A DNA stretch of 63,998 nt, counting the filler, from Collodictyon triciliatum (taxonomy: Eukaryota): the NCBI GenBank assembly GCA_043381765.1. It is 5 parts of 5 records of this genome, joined end to end, with 100 filler letters (N's around TTAATTAATTAA, not from the genome) between each part and the next. Parts side by side here need not be neighbours in the genome. Positions count along the whole stretch, not along the records: positions 40,978 to 54,525 come from JBHJMP010001967.1; 4 more parts are not named here. One strand, 5' to 3'. The position numbers were made by a program, and so were the translations under genes. Under the pieces are notes generated by a model that was given only the letters and a program-made list of their open reading frames with translations, did not search any database and had not been told where the DNA came from. This document shows positions 13,560-57,141 of the stretch, one piece after another. Within the stretch, counting starts at the first letter, position 1; each line of letters opens with the position of its first letter.

Positions 13560-13659
13560 NNNNNNNNNNNNNNNNNNNNNNNNNNNNNNNNNNNNNNNNN
13601 NNNTTAATTAATTAANNNNNNNNNNNNNNNNNNNNNNNNNNNNNNNNNNNNNNNNNNNN
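13560..13659. other. Artificial contig linker N44-TTAATTAATTAA-N44
   Basis: A 100-nt spacer with stops in all six frames, recurring four times in the window. Confidence 0.95.
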
Positions 13660-25169: not shown

Positions 25170-26740
25170 AGTTTTTGTGTTTTGGGTGGAAGAAGAAAAG
25201 AAAAAAAAGGAGAAAAATATGAAGTGTTCTACATATAGACCATTCTACTCAAGGTGATTCAGCCCCAAAGCGGTTTCTGGTTGTATGCGAGACTGACAGA
25301 GGAGCGGATAAAGTTGTCGGGTCGATGAAAGTACGCACATGGCAGTTACTTCTCAAATCGATTCCGACGAGTCCTTTCAGCCGCCTATCTCAGACAAGAT
25401 TTACGTCCTATTTCATTCCACAGGATGAGTCTTTTGAGGAGACAACGGGTCACTTTCCTTGCGTTTCTTGCTAGGCGACTGAGACAAAAAGCGATACATC
25501 GTTGTTTGTCTGGTATTATCTGAAGTGGCGCTTGACTTTCTCCTGGCATCGGACCATGCGTAGTCAGCAGTGGACTTTGCTTAACCAGAGTATGAATACG
25601 CGTTTGTGGTTTTAGAAACATACGCTCCTGCTTTCTCAGACTGCCTTTAGTGTATGAAGTTCCAAGCTTGGATTCGACTTGTGGTGTTTGCTCTTGCTCC
25701 TTGGTTCTCGGTGCGACGGGCTGGGACAGGGTAAACGGACTATCTTTGGTGGGCGCTGGTTCTTGTGTTGCCTTCGCTTTGGAATATCCTTTAGGATATG
25801 TAACAATGGCTGTCTTGATACTCAAGTAAATGAGGCACGTCAGTCTGAATGGGTAGTTTAAGGGGGGATTTCTTTCGGGGTTTGGAGATGCGCTGCTCTT
25901 GGGTCATGCGATGTGCGGGCTTGTCCGATGTTGGTGGTGGAGGGCTCGAGTGCGAGGATTCTGAAGAGGAACCGAGATTTCCTTCCATGTCATCGCCGTT
26001 GTCGCTGTATGCGCGTATCTGCTGTGAGTCTTGCGGGCTCAGTTGTTGCCTGGCCTTGGCTTCCTTGACCCCGTTGCTGCTTGTCTGCTAAGTGTATGTA
26101 TTCTTTTGTGGAGCTTTTACTTGTCGTTTGTTGTTTGCAGCTGGCGGACACTCTTTGGGGATGTGCTTTGGACACTTTTTACCCATGACCGTAAACTTTG
26201 CAGGGAGCTGGTTCTTGTGGCAAAGAAGCTTCACCACGGCCGTGTCTGTGAAGAAGCCTTTGTCCTTTTTTGATGTATCCACGTGGGTCGGTCTGAACGG
26301 CTTCAGCTCCTCATGAAGGAGTTGCGGCCATACTTACAGCGGTAGTTGGTAGAGCATCACCGAGGTCTCTGTTGGTTTACTTCTCTGCTGAAGCTGATCG
26401 TAATATCGCTCAGACTTACCTGTTTCAGCTCCATGAGCTTTCCGGTGTTTTCTGCAGTGCGGAAGGCAATCAGGCAAAGGCCTTCGCTGTCCGGTAAGCC
26501 CAGTTGGATGGACTCTTCCCAAAGTTTGTTCGCATTCAAGAAGGAGGCGAGCGCATCAGTGAGCCTGCGGGCCTTGTTCTTGTTTTAAACGACTTGCTCG
26601 ACCCCGTGCAAAAATACTTTCGATCGGACAGACTTGCAGGCGGTTTCCTTGCACACGTCTTCGTGGATTTACGTTCAACTCAGTTTTTCCGCACCAGCGT
26701 TGGAATCAGAAGAACTTTCTCTACTCTCTAATCCAACCCT
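25170..26740 (-). mobile_element. Decayed LINE-like retrotransposon, copy B (near-complete frameshifted ORF1)
   Basis: Overlapping broken ORFs NANKLWEESIQLGLPDSEGLCLIAFRT..VMLYQLPL..DKGFFTDTAVVKLLCHKNQLPAKFTVMGKKC..PKGYSKAKAT, with high nucleotide similarity to 29040-30355. Confidence 0.7.
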
Positions 26741-27220: not shown

Positions 27221-27320
27221 NNNNNNNNNNNNNNNNNNNNNNNNNNNNNNNNNNNNNNNNNNNNTTAATTAATTAANNNNNNNNNNNNNNNNNNNNNNNN
27301 NNNNNNNNNNNNNNNNNNNN
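27221..27320. other. Artificial contig linker
   Basis: N44-TTAATTAATTAA-N44. Confidence 0.95.
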
Positions 27321-29039: not shown

Positions 29040-30355
29040 ATGAAAAAGGAGAGAAAGTATTCTTATACACGGACTATTCTACTCGAGGTGATTCAGCTCC
29101 AACGCGGTTTCTGGTTGTGTTCGAGACTGACAGAAGAGCGGATAAAGTTGTCGGGTCGATGAAAGTACGCACATAGCAGTTACTTCTCAAATCGATTCCG
29201 ACGAGTCCTTTCAACCATCTATCTCAGACAAGATTTACATCCTATTTCATTCCACAGGATGAGTTTTTTGAGGAGACAACGGGTCACTTTCCTTGCGTTT
29301 CTTGCTGGGATATTCAGACAAAAAGCGATACATCGTTGTTTGTCTGGTATTATCGGAAGTGGTGCTTGGCCGTCTCATGGTTTTGAGACCATGCGTAGCC
29401 GGCAGTGGACTTTGCTTGACCGGAGAATGAATATGCGTTTGTGGTTTTAGAAGCATACGCTCCTGCTTGCTCGGGCTGTCTTTGGTGTGTGAAGTTCCAA
29501 GCTTGGATTCGACTTGTGCTGTTTGCTCTTGCTTCCTTGGTTCTTGGTGCGACAGGCTGGGGTAGGATAAACGGACTATCTTTGGTGGGCGCTGGTTCTT
29601 GTGTTGCCTTCGCTTTGGGGTATCCTTTCGGATAAGTAACGAAGACTGCCTTGATGCCTTCTATGTTAACCATATTCACGTCAGTCTGAATGGGTAGTTT
29701 AAGGGGGATTTCTTTCGGGGTTTGGAGATGCGCTGCTCTTGGGTCTTGCGATGTGCGGGCTTGTCCGGTGTTGGCGGTGGATGGCTCGAGTGCGAGGATT
29801 CTGAAGAGGAACCGAGATTTCCTTCCATGTCATCGCCGCTGTCGCTGTATGCGCGTATCTGCTGTGAGTCTTGTGGGCTCAGTTGTTGCCTGGCCTTGGC
29901 TTCCTTGACCCCGTTGCTGCTTGTCTGCTTGGCAGGTGTATTCTTTTGCGGGGCTTTTACTTGTCGTTCGTTGTTCGCGGCTGTCGGGTGCTCTTTGAGG
30001 ACGCTTTGGACACTTTTTGCCCATGACCGTAAACTTTACAGGGAGCTGGTTCTTATGACAAAGAAGCTTCACTACGGCCGTGTCTGTAAAGAAGCCTTTG
30101 TCCCTTTTGATATCCACATGGGTCGGTCTGAACGGCTTCAGCTCCTCGCGAAGGAGTTGCGGCCACACGTCCAGCGGTAGTTGGTAGATCATCACCGAGG
30201 TCTCTGTTGGTTTACATCTGCTGAAACTGGTCGTAATGTCGCTCAAACTTACCTGCCTCAGCTCCAGAAGCTTTCGGGCGTTTTCTGCGGTGCGGAAGGC
30301 AATCAGCCAAAGGCCTTCGCTGTCTGTTAAGCGCAATTGGATGGGCTCCTCCATC
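29040..30355 (-). mobile_element. Decayed LINE-like retrotransposon, copy C (ORF1)
   Basis: EEPIQLRLTDSEGLWLIAFRTAE..VMIYQLPLDVWPQLLREELKPF..TDTAVVKL..SKKRKESDPLSPQKTHPVE*; homologous to copies A and B. Confidence 0.7.
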
Positions 30356-30400
30356 GCTATGACATATAATTTCACAATACGCAGGCGACGCCCTTTCTTA

Positions 30401-30531
30401 AAAAAGACAAAGACAAAGACAAAGACAAAGACAAAGACAAAGACAAAGACAAAGACAAAGACAAAGACAAAGACAAAGACAAAGACAAAGACAAAGACAA
30501 AGACAAAGACAAAGACAAAGACAAAGAAAAA

Positions 30532-30594
<63 letters not shown>
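30401..30594. repeat. (AAAGAC)n followed by (AAAT)n microsatellites
   Basis: Read directly. Confidence 0.95.
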
Positions 30595-30595
<1 letters not shown>

Positions 30596-30776
30596 ATTTT
30601 CAATATTTACATATTTCTCGTCATTTTTTTATTTTTAGTGGCGCATCTTTCTGGGGAGAAAGCACTTCAGTCTGCTTAGAAAAACCCTCAAGGATTCCCA
30701 AATCTAAAATAAATGTTTTTTTTTTTAACACAGAATGCATTTCTACCAAATATTTAGACAAGTAACCTTACTTTCG

Positions 30777-33700
30777 TTAAGGTTTAATTCTCTTCCTCCA
30801 CTCAGATGCGTGGTTAGTGTCCCTCTCAGCACCCCAACCATTTTCATAGCATTCAGCGACGATACAAACTGCTTGTGGATATTTGTACTTTTCTCCAATT
30901 TTTTGTCCCCATTTATTCAATTCATCCTCCTTTATTTCAGTCATTTCTTTCAAAACACTGAATGCCTCCTTTGAACCTTGCTGTGCAATTTGCATCAAAC
31001 CGTCGAAATCTAGTATAGACTTTAAGGGAATAATTATCCCCCAGTAATGTGCTTTCTTTCTATCACTCTCAACACCCCATCCATTTTCATAGCAATCAGC
31101 CATCAGTTTTGCTTGAAATTTTGTGAACTGACCTTGTTCACAATATGAAGCAAAGTCCAAATCAAAAGAAGCAGCACCAATTGAAAGTAGGAGGTATTTG
31201 TTGAATTGACTCAACCCAATGACATTTCTGATTTGAATATTTCCTCCTTCCAACTTTCTAGGGCCCTTGATATGGACAGTCCTCATATCTTGGGTAGCTT
31301 TCGTGTCATTAAGGCTCGTACCACCCGTATCTCTGCCCAACACTGCGACGTTTTCTTCAGCTATCATATTCTTGATGAAGTACTTCCCTTGGATGTATCT
31401 CAATTCTGGTTTACGCAAACTGTGTATTTGATTTCGCGTGGCCACATTCCAAATTCGTATAATATTATCATCACTTCCAGAAGCCAACCAGTTTTCACCA
31501 TTCGGTCCTTGAACACAGCAAACACTGGTGATAGAATCTTCATGTCCTTTCAGTATTTCGACTTGATTATTTGTGACTAAATCCCAAAAACGAATTGTTT
31601 TATCTTCACTTCCGGAGGCCAACCAGTTTTCACCATTCGGTCCCTGAATACGACAAAGGCTATTGACTCCTCTTGTATGTCCTTTCAATGAATCGATTAT
31701 GTTTCCTGTAGCCATATCCCAAATACATATAGTTTTATCTTCGCTTCCGGAAGCTAGCCAGTTTTCACCTTTTGGCCCTTGAATACTGCAAACACTTTTT
31801 ACCGTGCTTTTATGAACTTTCCATGTTTGGATTTGATTTCCTGTGGCTACATCCCAAATGCGAATAGTATTATCTTGACTTCCAGAAGCCAGCCAATATT
31901 CACCATTCGGTCCTTGAATGCTGCAAACGCTGGCAATATAGTTTGTATGACCATCTAATGTTTTAATTTGATTCCCAGAATCGATATCCCAAATACGTAT
32001 TGTTTCATCACGACCTCCAGAAGCCAACCAATTTTCACCATTTGGTCCTTGAATGCTGCAAACACAAAAGATAATATCTGTATGACCCACTAGTTTTTTA
32101 ATTTGGTTTCCTGTGACTACATCCCAAATACCCAATGTTTTATCTTGACATCCAGATACCAGCCACCTCTCACCGTTTGGCCTTTGGACATTGCAAACAC
32201 TCATTATAGGTCCGACGTGGTCTACTAATTTTTTTGTCAGAGTCCCAGAGGCTAAGTTCCAAACATGAACAGTTTTATCATGACTTCCAGAAGCCAACCA
32301 GGTTTCACCATTCGGTCCTTGTATACTGCAAACACTATTGATATAGCCCAGATGGCCCTCTAGTTTACCATGAACCAATCCCAATTTCACATTATTCATA
32401 TTTGTATTATCAAAAACACAACCACCAAGCATCGAGTCAGTAAAATCAACCCCACTCAAGTTGGCACCAGTGAAGTTTGCACCATCAAGAATTGAATTAC
32501 TGAGATTCGCGTGAGGAATTTGGATGTTTGATAAATCCATTCCGTCAAACGAAACATTCATGAAATTCAAAAGTGTGATAGCATCAGATGCAGCCTTTGA
32601 TTTGCTCTCATCATTTTTTGACATGTAGACAATTCTGAATAATGATGAAATTATTTGATCACGATTCCACTCTCTATCCAGTAGAACATCATCAAGAGTT
32701 TCACTGATGAATTCCTTGACTCTTGTAAACTCAACAGGCTCCTTAATACTTCCGATCTCCTTTGAGTGGAGAGTTAAGTATTCGCACGAGTTTAATGTTC
32801 TCTCGTGAACCCATCCGAGTTTTCCAGCAAATCTGTCTCTCATCTCAGTCCAGAATGTAAGGGCACTTTCATGCAGCTTGTTCTCTTTGCAGTACTGGTG
32901 CACACTCTCACAAGCCACCCAGCAGTCCCAGTTTTGATAGGATGACTTTTCACCATGTCTAACTGCAGCCGTCTTGTAAACTTGAATCACAGCCTCATCT
33001 TTCTTCGCTTCTCTTAATAATCGAACGAGTTTGTCAATCTGTTGCATATCATACAGTAGCATAGCGGTTTTTGTTTCCTTCCTGGTGGCAGCTGTCCTCT
33101 CAAAGTGCTCAACAACTTGGTCCAATCTTAATTCGTAAAAGCTAATCAATAACAAATCACCGATATTTTCTAAAGATTTTTCTTTCTAAAAATTGAAATA
33201 TATAAATTTTACCTTTTTAGCTCAAAGTTTGTTTTCCCGATATACTCTGCAAAGCCTGACCTCTCAATATCTGAATCTTCGAAATATTTCATATCAGCAT
33301 CGAAATGTTCAACGTGCTTTTTGTAATGAAGCAGGAATGTATTTGAAAGCTTTGTACTGTGATGTGCCCAGCCAAGTTTGTTCGTAAATTTGTCTCTTAC
33401 AGCAACCCAAAATGCCATGCCTTCATTATACAACTTGTATTTGGTGAAGTATGTGTGGGCATTTTCACAAGACGCCCAACAATACCAATTATCATAGGAT
33501 GATTTTTCACCGTACCTAACGAAGGCAGTTTTGTAGAGTTGGATATTTACTTCATGTTCATTCATTTTTGTTGTGTAATTCATGATTTTGTCTATTTGAT
33601 CTGTGTTATCTAGTGACATAATGGTATTTGTTTGCTTTCGGATGAGAGCAGCTAAATGTAAGTACTCGATGACTTGGTCGAACCTGAATGCATAAAAATG

Positions 33701-36700
33701 AATTAACAAAGGGTTGACTCTCTTTGAATCGAATAAAGGAGAAAAAAAAAACAAAGGGTTGACTCTATTTTTTTTTAATTGTCATTATGATAAAATTATT
33801 AGGCATTTAAATTCTTAATATGAACCTTTTCAATTCAAAGTTTATTCTTCCAACATTCTCGAGAGATGTTGCGTAATCGACATGCTTTTCACCCAGTGTC
33901 CTTTTGCGAATATCCATAGTCTTTGTATAGGCATCCAAGGCATACTTGAAACTAAAGATACCAAGCAAATATTTATATCGAACAAAGGAAAATGATATAG
34001 TGAGGATTATTTTCTCTTAAATTACAAAAGAATTTTTTTTAATGGAATCATTAATATTTATTATGAACTACTCTTTCATATTATGGCTGACATCTCCTAT
34101 CATTTCATAGCACGCTACAACTTTCGGATGATTTTCTCCAAAATTAGATAATAAAATGTCCAGTGATTGTTTGAATGATGATAAAGCCTCGTGTTTCCTA
34201 TGACATTAGATGATTGAATAGACAAAAACATATCCAATATTATTGCATAATGCTTTTACGTATCCTTTCTAACCTATCACTAGCAAAGTAAACATTTGCG
34301 ATAAACTGCATAGTTGATGCAATAGATGCGTGCTTAGGACCCATCGACTTTTCTAGGATTGATTGTGCTCGGTGGTACATCTCGATAGAATTCCTATACC
34401 TAAAGTACCCTACTTATTAGCTATCCCAATATATTCCTTGGATTTTACAAAAGAAAAAATGGTGAAAATATGGGAGACCTGTGCTCACTTTTTCTCAGCC
34501 AAAAGTACATGCCCATAGTTTTGATACGATGTTGAGACAAGAGGGTGCTCCTTTCCCAATTTCTTTTGGCGAATTTCCATAGACTTTTTGTATTTGATCA
34601 TAGCCTGGTCGATTCTGAGATAAATTTATATCAGAAATGATTACTTTTTCATAAAAATGGAGAGGGTCAGAATAGACAAATTAAAATACGCTCAAGAGTT
34701 ACTTTGACTGTTTCACATAGATATCTCCGAAGCGGTCATACGATTGCGCGACTTGCAAATCGTTTTCGCCCAGCTGTTTAATTCTCAAGTCTAATGATTG
34801 TGTATATTCATCGAGAGCATCTTCAATTCTAAATAAAAAAAAAAGACAGTATTTTAGTTGAGGATTATAAGGTTACAAAAGGGTGAGCACTCACCTATCC
34901 TGTTGCTGGTAAATATACCCTATTTCCTCATGGATTGTGGCGACACTCAATAAACAATTTTCAATTTTCTCAATAGAGTTGAGGCATTTTTTGTAATGAA
35001 CCATGGATTCAGTCCAGCTGTTTTTTTTTTTTTTATCATATTAGTAAATTTAATCCGGATATTTTAGACAAAGGTGCATTTTTGTCTCCATTACGATAAT
35101 TATATATATATTTTTTTTACTTTTGAAGATTCTTGTAGACACGGCCAAGGTTCAGGTAATCAGCAACTTTGGATTCTATATATTGGTTTGCATTTAATTG
35201 AAAAATTCAATTATTTAATCCTTTATTCTGTTCTATGTACTTGCTTTTTTATTTTGTCGGATTACAGAACCATTAAACTACCTTCTGTTTGATATCTCCC
35301 GAGACGCATGTTAAGAACAGAGAGCAAGAATGAGTTCTCAAACGACTCCAGGAAAAATTCGACGAGTAAGTTCCCCACGTTATCGAGGGACTGAAAAAAA
35401 ATTCATTAGATCAAAGAAGTCAATTATTTGATTTTGAACCAAGAAACATTTTCCTATGAGTGATATTTATGTACATTAACTAGAGTCTTGTAAACTTCCT
35501 TGTAGTTTGCCACTCCACTCTCGTGGATTGCCCTCCAGCATGAAAAGAATTCATAGCGATATCGCCCACCGAGCATGATACTGATGACCTGTGAATATAT
35601 TTCTGTCAATAAAAATCTTAAAGTGGAATTAATCATTTATTGAGTAAAACTGTTATTATGATAGAAAAATCTTTACATGATTCTGCTTCATATATTCTAC
35701 GAGCAATTCAAATGAATTTCCTTTTAAAAGTTGATAGCATATTTCGGCAGCGAGTTCCTCATCCACCTCAACGATCTCCAGATATTGACCAAAGAGCCAT
35801 TTCCCGTAATTATGATGAGATTTTATAACATCATGGCTTTCAGAGAAGTAGACCCTTTCAGTCGTCTCCAAAAGTAGATGATGGAAGAACATGTATCTAT
35901 TTTATTATTGTTAGGCTGATTAAATCATGTTATTACGATCTAAATAATTTAAGAATGATTTAAGTTATTGTAAAAATTCTTTTTAAAAAATGTAACCTTC
36001 CGTTGCGAACGAAAAGCGAATCAACGAGAGTAAAGAAGAAGGTTTTCCTGAGAAATATCACGTTCATATAATTATTAGAATCGCAGTATTCGATAAAAAA
36101 AAAAAAAAAAAAAAAAAAAAANNNNNNNNNNNNNNNNNNNNNNNNNNNNNNNNNNNNNNNNNNNNNNNNNNNNNNNNNNNNNNNNNNNNNNNNNNNNNNN
36201 NNNNNNNNNNNNNNAAAAAAAAAAAACGGGAATCATAAGAACGAAAAAAATTCATAATCTTCTCTCAAATTCGAGTCATAAATAGGAGTTGGTCACGGCT
36301 TACTAGCTAATTAAATATTATGATAATTATGAAATAAAAATACCATTCAGCAAGCTCGAATCCTGTGCCGATTGTGTCCTTCATGTACCTGTCCAAATCA
36401 CTTTCGCTCAGGCCGATACGGGAGACAAACAAAACTTTCATTGAATTCGAGACATAATCGAGATCTGATAATTAAAGTGTGACAAAATTAACAGATCGAC
36501 TTCAGAATTTCAATATAAGGATGTTTTTTTTTTTAAAAAAAAAAAAATTCACCTCCTCTGTCATATTTCTTGCGCCAGCGTTGAATAATCAAGGTATATA
36601 GCTCAACTACACCTTTTGTCGAGAGCAATGTCCCTAATTCGTCATCAAGTTTTTCATAAACTCCGAAAACCCTGATTTCATCCAGAATTATGCGAAGGTA

Positions 36701-39700
36701 GAGCGGGTGGCCTAAAATAAGTTTGTGAAATTCATACTATGAATTCATCCATGTCAGAACTTATTAAAAAAATATGCATTTACTAGAAAAAATAATGCTC
36801 CACCAGTGTCTTTCAGGTCATCAAGAATCATCCCAACTTGCTTTTCGTTTAGAGTCTTGTCGTAACGAGTAAGGAATGATTCGACACCATCTTCGACTTC
36901 AACCTCAGTCAACTTGGCGACAGGAATGGATTCCAAACCACTTTGCTCAGCAGACTTACCATAAATTAATGAATTTCGAATTCAATTATATAATTTAAAA
37001 AAACTTCAAATTTAAAAGTAAACTCCTCTTCTATCAGTTATTTTTAATTAGAACTTAAATGGTATGAATAAATGCCTTGAAAGCTTCATGCGTGTCAATG
37101 GTCGACACAACTATGGCAGTATTAAGTGGCGTTTCTTTGGGCAACCAGGTTAGCAGGTGAGGGGCTGGTGTTCCTTGCGACGGATGGATTTGGTTGATGG
37201 CGTCGATGAGGAAGACAAACTTCTCGTCTCTTAAAAAAACAATATTTAATGATAATAATGACTAACAGAAAAATTGCGAAACCACGAAATGATAAAAATA
37301 TTACTTATTCATCTCCTGAATCATTTTCAGTAAGCCTTGGAGCCCATCTTTTTCGTAATCTGGCGGCACCATAAAGTAAACATATACAATGATTTTTTTT
37401 TGTTATCGCTTTCACTTCGTGCAAGGTGGTGTACATAATGATATTTTATTTCAAATTAAAAATAAAAAATCGAATAAATTAAATAAGAATGTATTTACCG
37501 GTTTCTTGCTTGCTTCGCCCAAAAAAGCTGGCGGATTTTGTGACTAAAGTCCAGAAGCGAATCGAAATACTACATAAAAAATCTTTTGAATAAGAATGCA
37601 TTTAATAATAAAACCATTTTTAAATCAGAAATTGATAAAAGTAACCTTTCCACGTAGTTGCTGAGGTTGGTGCATCCGACAAAATGGAAAAAGACACTCA
37701 GTCCAGGATATTTCAGCCCTTCGAGGTTTCTCGCTGTAGCAGCGATGAGCGACGACTTTCCAATCCCAGACTCAGCAGCAAGAACGATGATTTTGGACTT
37801 GTCCATATTAAGCTGGTTCAAGGCCTGATAAAAAAGTATGAGATTTTATAAATTAAGAAAGCAACAAGAAATATATAAGAATTTAATTGATTTTTTTATC
37901 AGCTTACTTGCTCCGTGATTGTCTTGAGAAGCTCCTTTCTTCCGCCAAACCCAGCCAGTCGATGCATCTTGAACTGGTGCTGTGCTTGGTCTTCAGGATC
38001 TCTCACCTAGGTTATAGTTATGACAACAAATGTAAATGAAACATATAACACCAATCAATTTAGATATCTATAAAACCAATTAAATAAAAAAAATAATACA
38101 ATTTGATTCCCAAAGTCACGCTCGATGGCGTAGGTTAGATGGTATGTCACAAAGTCTGAATACTCCTTCGCTCCTTTGTAGATAACATGTCCGAACTTTG
38201 CCTTTACTTTTCCTTTAAGTTCCTCTTGCCTCATGCGCTAAAAAAACATAAACATAAACATAAACATAAACATAAACATAAACATAAACATAAACATAAA
38301 CATAAACATAAACATAAACATAAACATAAACATAAACATAAACATAAACATAAACATAAACATAAACATAAACATAAACATAAACATAAACATAAACATA
38401 AACATAAACATAAACAAAGAAATATCCAAAAAAATATACAGCCTCTTCGCTTTCATCTTGGAAAAGCTTTCTCTCTTCCTCGCTCTTGGCATGTTGGACA
38501 GCATAATGCTCATCACGGAGGTAAAAGAAGGCGCGGCTGCATGCTGGTTTGTCAATCAGACAGGCGTGTTGAATCTGAACATGTATTATCATCAATAATG
38601 ATTTTTCAATTACTTTCACTATTATTCATGAGAAAATACAGAATATAATGTAGAAATTCGCTTCACCTCGTATTCAGTCACACTCAGCCCAGGCATTTCG
38701 TTGATGAAAGGAAAGCGACTATTGGTTTCACTGCGCCATTCTACCCAAATATCCTTCATGGTAGCATCAGGCTTTGTTTTCAGCAGCTCCTGAAGGCGGG
38801 CTTGTTTGTTCAGCTCGGTTTTGCTTCGGTCAGGAATCCAGCCGTAGCGCGCACCGAGAGAGCACACAAAATATGGGCATTTTCCGATGGAGTCCAGACA
38901 ACGAATCACAACCTAATAAATAATGGAAAAGTGAGATTTATTATTCTATAAAAAGGAAAATATCATAAAATTATCGAATATATCATGTTAATAATATTGT
39001 GATTACCCATCCCTCACTACTGTCTTCAGAGGTTAATCCCCAGCGCAAATCGATAAAGACAAGGTCCACTCCCAATGATTTCGCAAGCCTTTTCAATCTG
39101 TGATGAAGATAATAATATTGTTCATGATATAAATAGAGGTATCATATCACATAATAACATAAATTAAGAAAATAAATAGGTCAATTCACTCAGGGGCTCC
39201 GTTCTTGAAAAACTCGTCTCTTTCACGCTGCATATCACGGAAAGTGGAGGAAAGGAAAACACGGATGACACGCTCGTCAAATACGATAAGCGGCAATGGT
39301 GTCGAGGTCACGTATCTTTGTGGAGCCGGATTCCATTTCTTGTATTGCCTCTCCTTCAGGTCTTCACGAGCGAGCTTCATCTGATTTGGAAATGCGTTTA
39401 TAAAAAAAACTGAACAAATTAGTTTATTTTCAATCTTTTGTTTTAAGCGATTTCTTACCTTGTCAAGAAGAATGCAAGTGCGGATGAGCACGACAGAGCC
39501 TTTTTCTTCCAGACCAAGGCCTGCATCAATATTTAAATTTCAAAAATCAATTTATGGACATGATTTAGCATTATTCTATTCATAATAAATAAAAAATAAA
39601 AGGTTTTCTAACCATGAAATGGAAACGGGGCCTTCGCTCTTTCGTAGAGTTTCCTGGCAATATCAAACCTCTCGCGACATTTTTTCTAAAATGTGAATTA

Positions 39701-40877: not shown

Positions 40878-40977
40878 NNNNNNNNNNNNNNNNNNNNNNN
40901 NNNNNNNNNNNNNNNNNNNNNTTAATTAATTAANNNNNNNNNNNNNNNNNNNNNNNNNNNNNNNNNNNNNNNNNNNN
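40878..40977. other. Artificial contig linker
   Basis: N44-TTAATTAATTAA-N44. Confidence 0.95.
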
Positions 40978-44299: not shown

Positions 44300-47200
44300 A
44301 TGAAAGCATCATTTCTCGGAATCATCCTCTTGGTATCGCTTGGTACAACCCGTTCCTTACACAGGTTCTTAAATATGCCATTTTAATTTTTTTCCAACAG
44401 CCAACTAAAATTTTTTATTAGGTCAAAATGCAAGCATACTAAGGAGGAGTTGCTTTCTATGAATGTCGAACATGCTTTTAAAATTCTGCTTCAATTCTAT
44501 GAAGAGTCTTGTTATTCCAATCCTGGTGATATTATACCGCATTATTCTCATGTAATGGAGGGTGCAGAAATCACAAAATTCCCAGAAGACAACGGATACT
44601 ACTTTGAACTGGAATCTGCAAGAAAGAATATTTGCCAAGATGATGAATATTATGATAATCCTTTAGTCCGCACTAGAGAAGAACCAAAATTTATGAAAAA
44701 AGAAGACACTCCCAACCAATTTGAGACTCTTGTCTTATTATATGATAAGCTGGGTGGCGATGATTGGTTTTTTAATTTTGGGTGGAAAGAAACGAATACT
44801 CCTATTTGCCTATGGGAAGGAGTTGAATGTTACTGGGACTGCACGGACGAAGAATATTCGGTACTTTGTAAAATGGGCACTTTTCATATTTTTATTCCCA
44901 CGATTATATGATATTTATTTTGACTTAAACATAAAATTTAGTGGTATTTAAATCAACTTTTATATAAATAGAAAAATACATGCCCTATAATTGGATTGTG
45001 GATGTCCAGCAATAACCTGAATGGGGACATTGCAGAGGCTTTTTCTATAGTCGAAAAACTTCCGTTCCTTCTTGACATGCACCTGAACCTCAATAATTTG
45101 CACGGGAGTATTCAAGGATTAACTCTACCTATTCTGCAGAATCTAAATCTTAGATATAATTTTATTTCTGGCTTACTTCCTGACTTTCAAGGAATTCCCA
45201 CTATTGAGGGACTTTTCTTCTCTTTCAACAAACTAAGTGGTAAGCTAAGTCTGAAAACATTTTTGTGCCGATAGCTTGTGAATTCTATTTTATTGAAGGT
45301 TCAGTTCCGAATTTCAGTGGCATTCCTTATGTTCTGGATATTAGAATTTTCGGAAATGAATTGAGTGGTAAGGAAGTAGTGATAAGTTGTATGTTTTAGA
45401 ATTCAATTTACTTATGATTAATTATATACTCCATAATATACTATATAATACGACAACTTATGATTATTTTAAAATTTAAACAAGGGATAATACCGAATTT
45501 CAACAACATTGGATTACTGAATCTGATTAATTTAGGGAACAATACTCTGAGCGGTAAATCTTCGATTATTTGCTAAATCATTGTGAAAAAGAAAGTACAT
45601 AAATGTTTGAATAACACTACAGGAATGATTCCAGAATTTCAATACACCCCGACGCTTCTAAGAATATACATGGAATTCAATCAATTGAATGGTGCGTTTA
45701 ATTGATTATTTATGAATTATCATGAAAAATTATGGTATCAAACTGTAAATAAACAAACAGGAGCGATTCCGGAATTTAAATTCACTCAAATGCTCCAAGT
45801 TTTGTTCTTAAGAGGAAATCAACTAATAGGTATTTTTTTTATTGGAATCCTTTATATATAGAAATTAATAATTCTAACATTCTCCGAATAACCATAAAGG
45901 AACTGTTCCGGAATTTCGATACACTCCGGCACTTCAAATTTTATACATGGATGCTAACCAGCTTAGTGGTTCTTATTTATTGATGCTTTTATTTTGACTA
46001 CTATATTTTAAATATTTTAATAAACTTTTAGGAACAATTCCAGAATTTCGATACACACCTACACTTCTAGAAATATCCTTGTTTTACAATCAACTAAGTG
46101 GTAATTTTGTTTCATCAATAATTTTACTTTGATGGGCATATTGTCAATATTTAAATAAAATTTTAGGAACAATTCCAGAGTTTCGATACACTCCGACACT
46201 TCAAAATTTACACATCGGAGCTAATCGGCTGAGTGGTGCTTTTTTTTATCAATAATTTTATGTTGAAGACCGTATTGTCATTATTTAAATAAACTTTTAG
46301 GAACAATTCCAGAATTTCGATACACTCCGACACTTCTAGAAATATCCTTGGCTTACAATCAACTGATTGGTACTTTTCTTTTATTAATGATTTTATGTTG
46401 ACAACCGAATTGTCATTATTTAAATAAACTTTTAGGAACAATTCCAGAGTTTCGATACACTCCGACACTTCTAGAAATATCCTTGATATTCAATCAACTG
46501 AGTGGTGCTTTTCTTTTATTAATAATTTTATGTTAACGACCGAATTGTCATTATTTAAATAAACTATTAGGAACAGTTCCAGAATTCCGATACACTCCGA
46601 CACTTCTAAGAATATACTTGATATACAATCAACTGAGTGGTGCTTTTTTATCAATAATTTTATCTTGGCGACCGTATTGTCATTATTTAAATAAACTTTT
46701 AGGAACAATTCCAGAGTTTCGATACACTCCGACACTTCTAGAAATATCCTTGGATTACAATCAACTGAGTGGTGCTTTTCTTTTATTAATAATTTTATGT
46801 TAACGACCGAATTGTCATTATTTAAATAAACTATTAGGAACAATTCCAGAATTTCAATATACTCCGACACTTCTAGAAATACACATGGGAGTTAACTTTC
46901 TGAGTGGTCCTTATTTATTTAATTTTGCTATGAAGAACTAAGTGATATAAGGCTTTCAATAACATCACAGGAACGATTCCAGAATTTCGATACACTCCGA
47001 GCATTTCAGTTTTATGGATAGCGGACAACTATCTGAGTGGTAATTTTCATTATTGTTTTATATTCAGATAAGTAAAATACACTCACCATCAACTTTGAAT
47101 GATAATACAGGAAGCATACCAGAATTTCGATTCACTCCTGTGATTCAATCTTTGAATTTAGCAGGAAACTGGCTTCGTGGTATTGTGAATTTTATGATAT

Positions 47201-50200
47201 TTGATTATCTTTTTTTTAAAAAAAAATTATTTTTGTCATAGGAACTGTTCCAAACTTCAGTGGAATTCCACACGTTACAGAAATTATATTGTCAAGCAAC
47301 GAACTTGATGGTAAGAAAAATTGAGATAAAATAAACAAATGCTAATATTTTATGATAGGGACAGTCCCAAACTTCAGCGGAGTCCCGAATCTTGAGGGTA
47401 TTTACATAACTAACAATCAGCTGACAGGTAATAATTTTTTCAATTAAAATTGAAAAATTGATTGATGGCTAATGTCTCTTTGCAGGAACAGTTCCAAACT
47501 TCAGTGGAATCCAAAACATCAAAGAAATAAATCTTTCATCGAACAAATTGAGCGGTTTGTTTTTTTCTAAATAAACTATTATTAAAAAATATTCTGCTAA
47601 AATGAGACGTTTTCAGGAACAATTCCAGATTTCAGCAACGTTTCTAGTATCGAGATTTTGGATCTTGTTGATAATGAATTAAACGGTGAAATATACTAAA
47701 AGAAATTTTAAAAGAAAGAAAAGTTAAAATTTAGATTAGTTCCTTAATATCACGCTTAATCATTAGGTCAAATTCCTACATTTAATAATTGCTTACAATT
47801 AAAAAGAATCTTGTTGTTCAGAAACTGTCTCAATGACTCCCTTCCTTCATTCAATTTGCCGTTATTGAAGATGTTCGATGTCAGTGAAAATTTCTTGACA
47901 GGTACTATACCCAACAGCTGGAGTTCTCTATCAATAGAGGAACTAGACCTCTCAAATAACAGGATGAATGGAACTATTCCAAGCGTTTTTGAAAAATTTG
48001 AAAAGTTGGAATCTTTGACCTTGTCTAATAATCAATTTCATGGAACTATGCCTAATATGTTTTGGAATCTCCCTAATCTCATCTCCGTAGACTTGAGAAA
48101 TAACTCATTTTCAGGGGAAGTAAGTTATTTCATATCACCTGACAATGTGAATTCGAATTATGTGTACAATTACGAAACGCTGATTCTAGATGACAATCAA
48201 CTCTACGGGGAACTGGGCGTTAATGTTTTCGATTATGTAACAAATGTGAGGACCATAAGCATAAAGAACAATATGATATCGAAATTAGGTGATATAACTT
48301 TTTTATCCAGATGGACTTCACTAGACTTGTCTGGGAATCCAATATTTGGTAGCATATCTGAATCCTATTATCTATTCATCAAACTCGAGTATTTAGGCTT
48401 GAAAAATACGAGTATGAATCATGGCTCTTCGGATTTTATTCCCTCCTTTATGGATATCACCGAGTCCTACAGTTTAGAAAAGACGACAGACAAATATTCA
48501 TGTCCGTTGATTGTCTCGCGTTTAGGGTTGATAGAAACGGAAGTGGATATTGACCCAAATTACCATGACTTTGGTATGTGCAAATGCTTGCCGGGATACT
48601 TTGGATTCGGAAACCGATGTATCAAGTGCCCAAGAGAATGTGATTGCAATGACGGCGTTTCCTTGGAAAAGTGCTACTTCACGCCAGAGCTTGTTAAGAT
48701 AGCCCAAATAGTTCCATGCATGAATCCAAACGTGTGCAAATTTTATATTCCAGAATACATGCCTAAAAGAATGCTCATTAGCAATGATACATATGATTTC
48801 CCGTGTGAGAAGGGGTACACAGGGAGAAGTTGCTCTTCATGTGAGGATGGATACTTATTTGATAGCGGTGAATGCAGAGAATGCTCATCAGATTACTCTG
48901 CAATCAAAGTTATTGTGTTTCTTCTTCTGCTGTTTTTCGGAGTTGTCTATCAGGTTGGATTTGCTTGGGTAGGTGAGAGCGTAGATGACATCGAGGAGAA
49001 ATATTGCACCAGAGGCGGACCCGAGGACCAAATTGATTCAGGTAAGATAACTGTCGATGTATTCAAATTAATAATAATTTTACTATTCATTCTTGTATTC
49101 AATTTTTTTTTGTATCAGCATCGTTGGACATTTTCCTGTTTTACACACAAATCCTACAAGTTCTTGGCGATATTGTATATTTGCCGGAGATAAACCTTGC
49201 TGGAAAATTCGTCGGCAATTTGTTTTCATTAAAATTGCCAACCCTGGAGTGCATCGTTGGGAATCGCCCCCACATCACATCGCTATTGAATTTGGCTCGG
49301 ATCCCCACCATCCTTTTCATAGCTTTATTGGGATTGAAAAAATTTATCGCAAAAAGGGACAGGAAAAACGTCGAAAAGGTTTGTGAATTCGGTATATATA
49401 AATACATGTATTACAACATCGAAACTGACTTTGATAACGAACAGGTTGTCGGAGTCATGTTTATTTTCCTGGAAGGGACATATTTCTCGGTGGTGCAAGA
49501 TGTAGTGAGCACTTTTGGATGCACCATATATGATAAAGGGTTTGATTTGTGGTTTGTCAACACCTATCCATGGATACAATGCAACCCTATGACTGGCGAA
49601 TATGCAAAAATGATATCTGCTGCAATACCAGGCTTGCTGTATATGATTTTGTATCCGAGTTTCTTGTGGTTTATAGTAAAAAGAGCGAGGAGGCTTAAAA
49701 AAATTCAGCGTAAAAGTAAACAAGAAGACCTGGAGAAAACTGATTTGGTTTGATTAAATACGAGAAAATCAAAAAAACTGTAAAAATTTTAATCTATTCT
49801 ATCACACAGGTTACAAGTGACCCAAAACAGGAGTGCGAAATACATATTGAAATCAAGAGTATTGAACCTAGTAAATACACCTATGAAACGAACATTGACG
49901 GTGTTGAAGTAAAAAATTTCGACAATGATTCCAGCATTCCATCGGCTGTTCAGAGCAATTTAGATGATGAAAAGCGGAGTGATGCGAACAGACAAACTGG
50001 AGAAAATGATAATATCGAGATGAGTCAATCAACTTTTGAAATCATTTGCCAGGTTCAAGTGGATCGAATATCTGCTATCTACGAAGAGGTAAGGAGAATG
50101 ATAAATGTGTAAATGATTTTTATTTTGCAGCATCAGTTTCAATACTAACATAAATGAATGCGAAGAAATATGACTGGTGGGTGGTTATCAGAGTATTTCA

Positions 50201-50694
50201 ATCGATTTTGTTTGGATTTACTGCATTTGTTGTCCCCTACACATCACCGGCAATTCTCTATTTTGTCTTCTTCATACTGATTCAGGTTGGCACCTTATAT
50301 ATGAACTTGATAAATTGGGTTGAGTCATTTTAATTTTAACTTATAGATGTCGATTACGCTTCAAAATCGATTTGAGCCGTACCTTTTGGACTCTGATGAC
50401 AGCTTTTCGATAAACTGCTGGTTGCTGCTCTATCTCTCGTTTTTCGGTGCGCTAGTTCAGCAACTAGTTCCCGGAAATGACTGGATAGTTTACACAGTTA
50501 TCGGGCTGAATGCCGTGTTCATCGCCGACTTTATCATTCCTTTTGTTTTGGAAGCATTCAGTTCAGTGCTTGCTCTACTATTTGGTGTTGCAGCAAAACT
50601 CACTTCCAACAAGCCCAGAATCGTTGAATTGAAAAACAAGATTTCTGAGCTCATTGAAAAAATGGTGAGCACGTTTCTCAATCAAATCCTTTGA
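44300..50694 (+). CDS. Cell-surface receptor-like protein: signal peptide - LRRNT - ~30 LRRs - Cys-rich region - multi-pass TM domain
   Basis: Signal peptide MKASFLGIILLVSLGTTRS; LRRNT LYDKLGGDDW..GW..ICLWEGVEC; plant-like LRRs (LxLxxNxLsGtIP), 18 of them on single 69-nt exons at 45299-47685; CKCLPGYFG..CEKGYTGRSCSSCEDGY; several hydrophobic helices (DIFLFYTQILQVL, WWVVIRVFQSILFG, WLLLYLSFFGAL); stop at 50694. Confidence 0.9.
45900..47039 (+). repeat. Tandem array of ~132-135-bp exon+intron units, one LRR each
   Basis: Recurring ..ttag|gaacaattccagartttcgatacactccgacactt..aatcaactgagtg|gtgctt.. units; introns 46505-46570 and 46772-46837 are identical. Confidence 0.95.
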
Positions 50695-54525: not shown

Positions 54526-54625
54526 NNNNNNNNNNNNNNNNNNNNNNNNNNNNNNNNNNNNNNNNNNNNTTAATTAATTAANNNNNNNNNNNNNNNNNNN
54601 NNNNNNNNNNNNNNNNNNNNNNNNN
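54526..54625. other. Artificial contig linker
   Basis: N44-TTAATTAATTAA-N44. Confidence 0.95.
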
Positions 54626-54644: not shown

Positions 54645-57141
54645 CACCGATCGATACAACTTCGGTGTTTGGCAAGATCTTTTGGGAATCCCTTTGGACC
54701 GGAGGGTCAGCGAAAGGCGAAGGTGTTGTCGGATAGATAGAATCGATAGAAGGACGCGATGTGTTATCCGGAGGTGTACTTTGAGTATTTCTGCTAGCCT
54801 CAGCTCGGTTCGAAAAAATCTCAAGTGACGGGACATTTCCGTGAGTGACTCCAGGAGATGTAGCTTTCTCCCAGGGTCTTGAGGTGATGGCGGTATGTGC
54901 ATCTTCTACAGGACCTTCCACTTCATCATCAAGTAATCCCTCGTCGGTTAATCCGAGTGAATTAACAACAGGAGCAAGCGCTTTCATCTTGGGATGTGAC
55001 TCTTCTTTTATGGGGGTTCGCTCCACTATGATATTACCAAATAAAAAAAATTAAGAAAAAGAATTACCCTTATTCTGAATGAACCAAGCACAAAATGTGA
55101 TTATGAAAAATCATTTGAGAATAAATAAGTCAATTATTTTATTTCGTTTCATTTCATTTTTTGAATTCAAAGATTGCTCAGCATTTAGTAAATCGTGCTT
55201 CAACAAACCTTCACCACTTAAGGCATAAGATGATCCAAAATCCGTTTCAGGTGTAGCTTTTACATTTCTTCCTGAGGCTATATAACCATATGTAGCGAGA
55301 GATGCTTTTGCGGCTGGGGTGGGCACCAAATTTTCATAGGAATCAGGAGATTGGTCGTGCACTTGCTTGGTTGGAGTATATGGTTCCGTTTTGTGAGGCG
55401 TATTACGTTCTGGATTCCCAAGTAAATTGGGCTTTGGACTTTCTTCTATATTGTGTATCGGGTTTCCTTGTATATTGGGTGTCGGATTTCCTTGCGTGTT
55501 TGGTGTCGGATTTCCAAATGAATTATGTGTCGGATTTCCTTGCATGTTTGGTGTCGGATTTCTGAATGCATCGGGTGTCGGATTTCCAAATGAATTATGT
55601 GTCGGATTTTCTTGCGTGTTTGGTGTCGGATTTCTGAATGCATCGGGTGTCGGATTTCCAAATGGATTAGGCGTCGGATTTCCAAATGGATTAGGTGTCG
55701 GATTTCCTTGCGTGTTTGGTGTCGGATTTCCTTGCGTGTTTGGTGTCGGATTTCTGAATGCATCGGCTGTCGGATTTCCAAATGAATTATGTGTCGGATT
55801 TCCTTGTGTGTTTGGTGTCGGATTTCCAAATGGATTAGGCGTCGGATTTCCAAATGGATTAGGTGTCGGATTTCCTTGCGTGTTTGGTGTCGGATTTCCA
55901 AATGGATTAGGCGTCGGATTTCCAAATGGATTAGGCGTCGGATTTTCTTGCGTGTTTGGTGTCGGATTTCTGAATGCATCGGGTGTCGGATTTCCAAATG
56001 AATTATGTGTCGGATTTCCAAATGAATTATGTGTCGGATTTCCAAATGGATTAGGCGTCGGATTTGGATTAGGCGTCGGATTTCCAAATGGATTAGGCGT
56101 CGGATTTCCTTGTGTGTTAGTAACCGGTTTGGTGGGTAGATAGGCTCTTGAGGTCTCTTCGTAATTTAACCCTTGACTTCCTGTTGGCCTGCAGGTTTTG
56201 CTCAATCAAAAAATTGGATATGTTCACAGTATGAGTAAATGATAGTTGTAATATATATACTAAACATAATTTTCTTGGGGTATTTGTGTGGAACCGCTGA
56301 CGCTTATGGCAGTGATTCATGAAGAATGAGTAAAGTAGAAAGAAAAGAAAAGCCTGTAACGTGGCTGAGAGCGTGTTAAACTAAAGCATATGTCAGGCTG
56401 TAATGCAAGTATATCGGTATGTACCCTACCTAATATCTAATCGAGCCAGGATAAACGCATTATTAGTGAGCATAAAGAAAATAAAACAACAAAAATAAGT
56501 AAAAATGTCACAAGCGAGTTTCTACGATTCAGTATATGTAAAATTCAATAAAGTGTGTCATTTTGTGAGAAGAAATAGGTCGAGGACTAATACATGAGTT
56601 CTCTTTTCCTTTAATTTCAGCCTTTTGTTGGATCTTTCATCCTTCATTCGATTCAATGTCTGTCTCTTACTAGTTGATGGAGTCTCCGAAAACGAGGAAG
56701 CCGCTTTGTCGGGTGCGCTTTCGTGAACCGTGGAGTGTAAATATTCCGTGGTAGCGTTTTGAGCCAAAGGCAAACGCCTGGCTTGAAATCTCTGTATTGA
56801 ATATGGAGAAGCCTGGACTGTCTCCTCTGTTAGTGAAAGAAATTCACTCCCATTCAGCTGGTGTCGAGAGACCATGTTGGCAAAGGCATCAAATGTTAGA
56901 CTTCTTAGAATTTCCTCCAGTTTTGCAGGACTCAGCTCTGTCTCTTGCTTGATCTCTTCTTTCTCCATGGGTTGGGTGTGATTTTCCTGGTTTGCCAACA
57001 GAAAGAAAAGAAACATATATCAAATGTATTATTAATGTGCGTCGATTTACAAAAAAAAAAAAAAAACATCCTCCCAGGCGAATTATCCTTTGCTCTTTCC
57101 ATTCCTGTCTTCTTTGATTCGTTAAAAGTAGCCGTATTCAT
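54645..57141 (-). CDS. SAM-like domain protein with an octapeptide (GNPTPNPF-type) repeat region; 3' end lost at the contig break
   Basis: LSPAKLEEILRSLTFDAFANMVSRHQLNGSEFLSLTEE matches the SAM pattern. Phase-compatible GT-AG junctions can join it to the NPTP ORF (55111-56205) and to the exon ending ..VVSI|gtgagt near 54645. Confidence 0.6.
55455..56115 (-). repeat. 24-bp coding minisatellite (~27 units)
   Basis: Near-invariant gtcggattt core every 24 nt. Unit variants encode NPTPNPFG, NPTHNSFG, NPTPDAFR and NPTPNTQG. Confidence 0.95.

Follow-up and report, generated by a model that had tools for sequence, protein, structure and literature searches.

Collodictyon triciliatum (GenBank assembly GCA_043381765.1) carries a receptor-like gene in which successive leucine-rich repeats (LRRs) are encoded one to an exon, and two of these exons, each taken with its following intron, are identical except at four bases that fall in two adjacent codons of the predicted ligand-binding face. 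How do two copies come to differ there and nowhere else? We addressed this question in a 63,998-nucleotide stretch of DNA joined from parts of five records of the genome (hereafter the 64-kb window), with the gene lying in the part taken from JBHJMP010001967.1. A first-pass annotation of the sequence had offered strong diversifying selection, micro gene conversion or a targeted mutational process. The answer we prefer, with a probability of roughly 0.55, is that recent homogenisation of the two units together with templated multinucleotide mutation at a tolerant surface position explains the difference.

The four-base patch

Positional comparison agreed with the first-pass annotation on the central observation. 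Unit U4 (46436-46570) and unit U6 (46703-46837), 135 nt each, differ at four positions only, 46486 (A in U4, G in U6), 46487 (T, A), 46488 (A, T) and 46490 (T, A), so that two adjacent codons read ATA TTC in U4 and GAT TAC in U6. The identity extends a further 27 nt upstream and 5 nt downstream, giving a 167-nt block with 163 identical positions in which the patch is flanked by 77 identical nt on the left and 85 on the right. Under independent uniform mutation the probability that four differences among 135 positions fall within a span of five is 4e-5. The two codons occupy positions x7 and x8 of the strand motif LxxLxLxxN, again as originally described, and these are the equivalents of sites 19 and 20 reported as selected in LRR exons of Ectocarpus.

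Outside the six patch columns none of 161 sites differs between U4 and U6, and four of the six patch bases do. With no differences among these neighbouring sites, the neutral divergence since the last homogenising event must therefore be less than about 1.9%, and four independent fixations at the patch would require more than 36 times this neutral bound. Four independent substitutions are unlikely for this reason, and a single complex event is the likelier origin of the patch. An indel realignment of the patch, using one deletion, one insertion and one substitution, proved no more economical than four substitutions.

This raised the question of where the sequence of such an event could have come from. 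In U4 the patch GATATT, comprising the last base of the TTG codon and ATA TT of x7/x8, is the right arm of a perfect 6-bp inverted repeat, with AATATC (46476-46481) as the left arm and CTT (46482-46484) as the loop. GATATT is the reverse complement of nearby sequence, which is the relation looked for in the derived cluster of a template switch. Of 81 possible changes to these four bases, only the observed one gives a perfect repeat of at least 6 bp that covers them all, and 79 of the 4096 hexamers do as well as GATATT in the inverted-repeat test.

The neighbouring units resemble the patch as well. Over x7/x8 the ATATAC of U5 is one mismatch from U4, and the GCTTAC of U3 is one mismatch from U6. 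A conversion tract from U5 would give a 5-of-6 quasi-palindrome, and the A-to-T change then remaining exactly perfects the repeat. The search for donor tracts that had been recommended, run across the window, returned U5 and U3 as the only near matches, all inside the gene, with no other near copy and no exact second copy of either patch. Judged by the outgroup units U3 and U1, the U6 state is more likely to be the older; a U6-like ancestor pairs with the left arm at two of six positions and a U5-like intermediate at five of six.

Exchange and substitution among the units

Both units belong to a young tandem array for which Tandem Repeats Finder reports a period of 135 with 6.7 copies and 85% matches, and further periods of 267 and 402 (85-88% matches over all). 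Each unit here consists of an exon of 69 nt (23 residues), not 72 nt, and a phase-1 intron of 63-66 nt. The exon has been duplicated with its intron, and the constant exon length and single intron phase are those expected of a one-LRR-per-exon array. Because the exons are 69 nt long and all introns are in phase 1, units can be duplicated, lost or exchanged in frame.

The units are unevenly homogeneous along their length. Units are almost uniform in the opening 36 bases of the exon (GTIPEFRYTPTL) and in the final 30 of the intron, and among U1-U7 the pairwise diversity is 0.063 over exon bases 1-36 against 0.281 over bases 37-69, the beta-strand half. U2 is a mosaic that matches U4/U6 at all of exon bases 1-36 (0/36 differences) and departs from them in the core at 10 of 27 positions (x7/x8 left out), with 4/36 and 2/30 differences in the two parts of the intron (6/66 in total). 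U3 differs from U4 at 7 of 129 flanking positions. In the unit alignment (A1) the grouping of U3-U6 is in conflict, columns 14, 100 and 131 joining U4 with U6 and columns 51 and 53 joining U4 with U5. Mosaic units of this kind are what unequal exchange or gene conversion, acting repeatedly among units, leaves behind, with divergent cores surviving within homogenised flanks.

The seven beta strands read as first described (LEISLFYN, QNLHIGAN, LEISLAYN, LEISLIFN, LRIYLIYN, LEISLDYN and LEIHMGVN), and so does the codon after the conserved TTG, which is TTT, GCT, ATA, ATA and GAT (F/A/I/I/D) in U1, U3, U4, U5 and U6. The accompanying statement that silent sites and introns barely change holds for the U4/U6 pair but not across the five sister units, where parsimony counts 5 changes over 18 third positions of scaffold codons, or 0.28 per site, and 21 over 66 columns of the intron alignment, or 0.32 per site, and where pairwise diversity in the 5' halves of the introns is 0.184. 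The five concave x codons change faster at their first two positions, with 9 changes at 10 sites in the five young units compared with 26 at 84 in introns and scaffold third positions (ratio 2.9, one-sided p = 0.009), and 17 at 10 compared with 61 at 84 when U1-U7 are taken together (ratio 2.3, one-sided p = 0.003). At the first two positions of scaffold codons the rate is 0.18-0.31 of the neutral proxy, or three to five times slower. For the young set, NG86 estimates of nonsynonymous (dN) and synonymous (dS) divergence gave a dN of 0.363 at the x codons and 0.021 at the other 17 codons, with an exon dS of 0.179, which corresponds in this small sample to a dN/dS of about 2 at the five x codons and about 0.1 elsewhere. 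Set against intron divergence in the aligned units, the overall excess at the x codons is modest.

These rate tests score every base as an event of its own, and the counts are inflated by multinucleotide events. Counting the U4 patch and a GAA/AGA swap in U5 once each, we estimate about 6 events at 10 sites against 26 at 84, roughly a twofold excess and not clearly significant. The rates would fit moderate diversifying selection, or unconstrained exposed positions combined with multinucleotide mutation, equally well, and diversifying selection on the concave positions appears moderate at most. Of the strong selection suggested initially, a moderate form (2.3-2.9-fold) stays plausible; 'strong', argued from four point changes, needs the more than 36-fold excess given above.

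A similar pattern was seen in Diphylleia rotans, whose transcripts include five near-full-length isoforms of a related protein that form one 90% cluster and derive from two Trinity genes. After 21 columns in two dense, frameshift-like blocks had been dropped, these showed 14 isolated differences in a 662-residue LRR region, of which eight lie on x2, x3, x5, x7 or x8 (expected share 0.174, P = 0.0009). The differences fall in about six clusters, several within one beta strand. The recently diverged D. rotans copies thus likewise differ in concave-face patches, and these protein-level data fit selection or tolerance alike. The isoforms concerned (P0001, P0126, P0123, P0125 and P0121) are 98-99% identical, and each of their small clusters keeps to one LRR beta strand, as do E/K, H/D and E/K at x2, x3 and x5 of one repeat. 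We regard such clusters as the protein-level counterpart of the U4/U6 patch.

Origin of the patch

How might these observations fit together? We suggest that the array grows by tandem duplication and that unequal exchange or gene conversion keeps its units partly homogeneous, the convex-side coding half and the intron ends staying near-uniform and the beta-strand cores staying different. U4 and U6 would have arisen from a very recent homogenising event, and the four-base patch would have been left by one templated multinucleotide mutation or by two. By one route a short template switch would copy, in reverse complement, the six bases that lie three bases upstream. By the other a short conversion tract from the adjacent U5 would be followed by one change that perfects the 5-of-6 quasi-palindrome. 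Positions x7 and x8 are solvent-exposed, and patch events would survive there and not at scaffold positions because replacements would be tolerated, and probably sometimes favoured. What the sequence shows directly is the anatomy, the block of identity, the mosaicism, the rate contrast and the reverse-complement relation; the particular templated mechanism, the direction in which the patch changed and whatever part selection played are our inferences. Micro gene conversion, one of the three processes first put forward, is retained here in the wider form of a conversion or otherwise templated event, which is the best fit to a U5 sequence differing from the U4 patch by only 1 nt, a reverse-complement hexamer and mosaic units.

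Several points weigh against this account. The inverted repeat is only 6 bp long and AT-rich, and the single-stranded DNA folds weakly (minimum free energy -2 kcal/mol, z = -0.93), such that 32 of 200 shuffles fold as well and the best fold uses another stem. Löytynoja and Goldman dropped copied fragments shorter than 14 bp as too noisy (PMC5453318). As the repeat was found post hoc and U4 alone among nine units stands out for an inverted repeat at x7/x8, the corrected p is about 0.04-0.17. The classical mechanism requires a prior near-perfect repeat, and a U6-like ancestor matches the arm at the two positions of six noted above. Each version that invokes a single mechanism leaves something to chance, at odds of roughly 1 in 25 to 1 in 80: pure template switching does not account for the resemblance to U5, nor pure conversion for the perfect repeat. 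Any conversion tract from U5 is limited to about 29 nt (columns 47-75), a short length, and the direction of change depends on two or three outgroup units in a recombining array. A general templating of x7/x8 by hairpins was considered separately and rejected, U4 alone of nine units being unusual and the DNA hairpin weak.

It is possible, though unlikely, that U4 and U6 have long been different at x7/x8, and that later conversion homogenised their surroundings and selection or patchy mismatch repair preserved both variants. The mosaic U2 would be a parallel on a larger scale, the diversity contrast between the two exon halves among U1-U7 is of the same kind, and each patch type has a near twin (U3 for that of U6, U5 for that of U4), as expected of older alleles. 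The U2 core, however, is a long heterology able to block a tract, which a 5-nt patch can hardly do, and for the patch to be preserved, two tracts would have to stop on either side of it, within 5 nt of each other, or one interrupted tract would have to leave out exactly 5 nt. That strong diversifying selection fixed separate point substitutions at the ligand-binding face, a process of the kind invoked for plant resistance (R) proteins and Ectocarpus ROCO exons, seems to us less probable again. The idea draws on the faster change and raised dN/dS of the concave x positions and on U5, all of whose non-conservative replacements (E to R, S to Y, plus that at x7) lie at x3, x5 and x7; the D. rotans copies, too, differ mainly at x sites, and Ectocarpus type I exons are described as selected at the same structural positions (PMC3341825). 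For U4/U6 this reading has to accommodate a rate beyond 36 times the neutral bound beside 161 unchanged neighbouring sites, the excess at x codons is modest and weakens when the U4 patch and the GAA/AGA swap each count once, and relaxed constraint at exposed positions with multinucleotide mutation yields the same picture.

An assembly artefact is improbable. On this view the patches would represent alleles, or units of an array that is really longer or arranged in another order, with collapse, polishing or haplotype merging as the source of the identity around them. The identical flanks are long enough to confuse short-read assembly, and the four sequencing runs compared (shares listed 0.12 and 0.08) gave next to no cover, and none that was usable, of 45864-47129. 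Even so, a patch may be misplaced in this way but not created, so that both variants would exist in the same sequence context, and each leaves the frame intact and gives a plausible LRR; neighbouring units have distinct introns and cores, so that a simple collapsed repeat does not describe the array. Very improbable, in our view, is that the uniform flanks act as homology arms through which micro-conversion and hairpin template switches rewrite x7/x8 at a raised rate; if true, a unicellular protist would possess a built-in, possibly somatic, means of diversifying the surface of an LRR receptor. We give least credence to a targeted or programmed diversification of x7/x8, germline or somatic, comparable to the assembly of variable lymphocyte receptors (VLRs), immunoglobulin gene conversion or diversity-generating retroelements. 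In its favour, the changes affect several bases together, keep the frame and touch binding-face codons only, and conserved flanks around variable cores would favour templated exchange. The gene is nonetheless intact and needs no assembly, only U4 of nine units carries the unusual inverted repeat, and all 5 and all 11 matches to two unit probes in the 64-kb window fall inside the gene. Together with the patch searches these probes revealed no donor cassettes in the window. VLR-type cassettes and retroelement mutagenesis do not fit, since the window holds no donors and the changes are not restricted to adenines; retroelement-style adenine mutagenesis was ruled out on the differences themselves, which are G/A, A/T, T/A and A/T. 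Nothing seen here supports the targeted process named in the first-pass annotation. The four-base patch is not evidence for strong selection or for dedicated hypermutation.

The gene, its relatives and comparable systems

The receptor-like gene is about 6.3 kb long (roughly 44.4-50.7 kb) and encodes, from 5' to 3', an exon with an LRRNT-like cysteine motif, an LRR ectodomain, a Cys-rich region and a multi-pass membrane tail (Table 1). Each LRR unit of the array has an exon to itself save the 19th, which opens a large exon. The 18 introns between the units are 48-117 nt long, all 18 are GT..AG and in phase 1, and all 19 frames are open. The LRRs are of a plant-specific-like subtype with the consensus LxxLxLxxNxLxGxIP, and all 19 units retain P4, F6, N20 and L22 together with the hydrophobic L1/L4/L6 positions.

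Table 1. Features of the receptor-like gene and its LRR array; positions count along the window.
Feature	Position	Strand	Basis or remark
Receptor-like gene, span approximate	44387-50694	+	ORFs; tblastn of D. rotans P0001/P0003 aligning along 44387-50535
19 consecutive LRR units, 69 nt (23 residues) each	45299-47835	+	Open frames and splice sites
Young tandem array of exon+intron units	45987-46881	+	Tandem Repeats Finder; alignment A1
Unit U2, mosaic	46167-46300	+	Exon 1-36 as U4/U6, beta-strand core different
Unit U4, strand LEISLIFN	exon 46436-46504, intron 46505-46570	+	Sequence comparison
U4 patch GATATT (last base of TTG + ATA TT of x7/x8)	46485-46490	+	Right arm of perfect 6-bp inverted repeat
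U5 x7/x8 codons ATA TAC, possible conversion donor	46621-46626	+	14-mer match, 1 mismatch, 46617-46630
Unit U6, strand LEISLDYN	exon 46703-46771, intron 46772-46837	+	Sequence comparison
U6 patch GGATTA (x7/x8 = GAT TAC)	46752-46757	+	1 nt from U3 (GCT TAC)
Large exon: further LRRs, Cys-rich region, first membrane segment	47767-49037	+	ORF 47760-49193; LRR_8, LRR_1, LRR_4
3' intron	50284-50344	+	Joint 50283/50345, GT..AG, 3 contigs of run X2

As no RNA contig matched the array part of the gene, splicing of the 69-nt exons is predicted from splice sites, frame and homology. In the 3' part, contigs of one sequencing run (X2, possibly RNA) gave exact matches and spliced joints, the joint 49037/49115 among them in an exactly matching contig. 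We also observed a 66-nt GT..AG stretch (49377-49442) within a continuous open reading frame (ORF; 49046-49753) that amounts to about 22 extra residues relative to D. rotans P0003 and is spliced out in X2 contigs about 85-90% identical to the window. We read it as a probable in-frame intron, and the divergent contigs as a sign of a paralogue or of a related strain. Intron lengths of 63 and 66 nt are divisible by three, and the reading frame is open across the U5 intron, where read-through gives an 88-codon ORF (46537-46803, plus strand). Retention of the U5 intron would add 21 residues without a stop; a U4-type intron has an in-frame TAA.

Pfam scans covered four window ORFs and the D. rotans relatives P0001, P0003 and P0018, and did not include the 69-nt exons as a spliced protein. 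In the window ORFs they found LRR families alone, with the large exon matching LRR_8 (9.3e-15), LRR_1 (2e-13) and LRR_4 (7.3e-12), plus a weak LRRNT_2; two of the three D. rotans proteins gave a weak DUF7630. Across these sequences the scans returned no protein kinase domain, as an LRR receptor kinase would have, no ROC/COR domain, as would mark a ROCO protein, and no NB-ARC domain. The membrane tail matches no Pfam family and resembles uncharacterised eukaryotic Atlas clusters alone, some of which carry PF06011 (TRP) in 12% of their members, a lead only.

The D. rotans transcripts, from EukProt, are the only relatives that span the LRRs, the Cys-rich region and the membrane tail; they show 27-34% identity in the protein alignment (A2), and by tblastn P0001 and P0003 align over the whole gene. 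A search for proteins of near length with the Cys-rich part gave one match, the 294-residue protein P0145 (41% identity). The lineage is very poorly sampled, given that the nearest full-length relatives are transcripts of D. rotans. A metagenome scan with a unit probe whose variable bases were left open returned 0 matches, and one with alignment A2 gave 31 pattern matches of which 0 were confirmed. A protein search with a minus-strand ORF across the array, aimed at paralogous arrays called as ORFs, produced 439 candidates, none significant. Literature searches returned nothing on Diphylleia rotans combined with leucine-rich repeat, and nothing relevant on repeat-per-exon genes and concerted evolution.

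Elsewhere in the window, an 802-residue ORF on the minus strand (30777-33185) combines pentapeptide-like and Sel1-like sequence with about eight WD40 blades. The blades are near-identical (recurring SVCSIQGPNGENWLASGS.DKTIRIWD) but for a few positions, making this a second repeat protein with very similar internal repeats, and they are reminiscent of fungal NWD/HET-E WD40 repeats, which evolve in concert. Two minus-strand ORFs (25385-25903 and 29350-29829) share a near-identical segment, …VTYPKGY.KAKATQEPAPTKDSPF.L.QPVAPRTKE…, pointing to a dispersed repeat or a mobile element with at least two copies in the window. Low-complexity, coding-like sequence, (NPTPNPFG/NPTPNTQG)n over about 360 residues, occurs at 55111-56205 on the minus strand, and (HK)n and (FV)n tracts from dinucleotide microsatellites at 38160-38648 and 29830-30606. 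Pairs of 44-N runs 12 bases apart lie at 13560-13659, 27221-27320, 40878-40977 and 54526-54625, the last two bordering the JBHJMP010001967.1 part, and there is a single 93-N run at 36122-36214. The N runs look like masked stretches, often beside homopolymer or microsatellite tracts.

How does the Collodictyon gene compare with systems already described? One-repeat-per-exon LRR arrays of brown algae and ciliates, which diversify through duplication of exons, have been discussed as candidate immune receptors. In plant LRR resistance and receptor-like proteins and in lamprey VLRs, variation falls at the exposed xxLxLxx positions and exchange between repeats adds diversity. Unlike these, the Collodictyon gene has no kinase or NB-ARC domain in the Pfam scans and no flanking donor cassettes in the window, and it is not incomplete.

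The closest described system is that of Ectocarpus. The type I LRR exons of its ROCO genes are 72 nt (24 residues) long, with one LRR per exon and exon shuffling (PMC3341825; Zambounis et al. 2012), and positive selection was reported at sites 15, 17, 19 and 20 of GxxPxxLxxxxxLxxLxLxxNxLx (PMC3341825). In common with that system the Collodictyon gene has one LRR exon of fixed length, frame-neutral duplication and shuffling, and variable concave residues; the four Ectocarpus sites correspond to its x3, x5, x7 and x8. It differs in its 69-nt exons, phase-1 introns of about 65 nt, and Cys-rich and membrane tail in place of the ROC-COR GTPase, and belongs to a different lineage; for Collodictyon, selection would be moderate at most. 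In Tetrahymena, one study describes arrays of 90-bp LRR exons with phase-2 introns, the exons numbering tens of thousands genome-wide, and explains them by clonal expansion and unequal crossing-over between repeats (PMC6564038). Equal exon length within an array and a single intron phase are shared with the Collodictyon gene, which differs in having 69-nt exons, phase 1 and one gene visible in the window.

For the patch itself, the nearest comparison is with quasi-palindrome mutation. Short template switches are described as producing mutation clusters and perfect inverted repeats without selection (PMC5453318), and in yeast as yielding several adjacent amino-acid replacements that mimic positive selection (PMC8604942). 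As in such mutations, nearby base changes make the U4 patch the perfect reverse complement of its neighbour, with adjacent replacements as the result. Unlike them, the copied fragment would be only 6 bp, compared with the 14-bp filter of the human study, and a prior near-perfect repeat would exist only through a U5-like intermediate.

The Collodictyon gene works like the Ectocarpus and Tetrahymena arrays but belongs to neither family, and adds a third, independent one-LRR-per-exon array with its own exon length (69 nt), intron phase (1) and domain partners. It also carries a warning, in that clustered nonsynonymous changes in near-identical repeats can mimic intense selection or hypermutation where templated multinucleotide mutation is the more economical reading. 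Should the genome prove to contain many arrays of this kind, it would serve well for apportioning the contributions of conversion, template switching and selection to receptor diversity in a protist.

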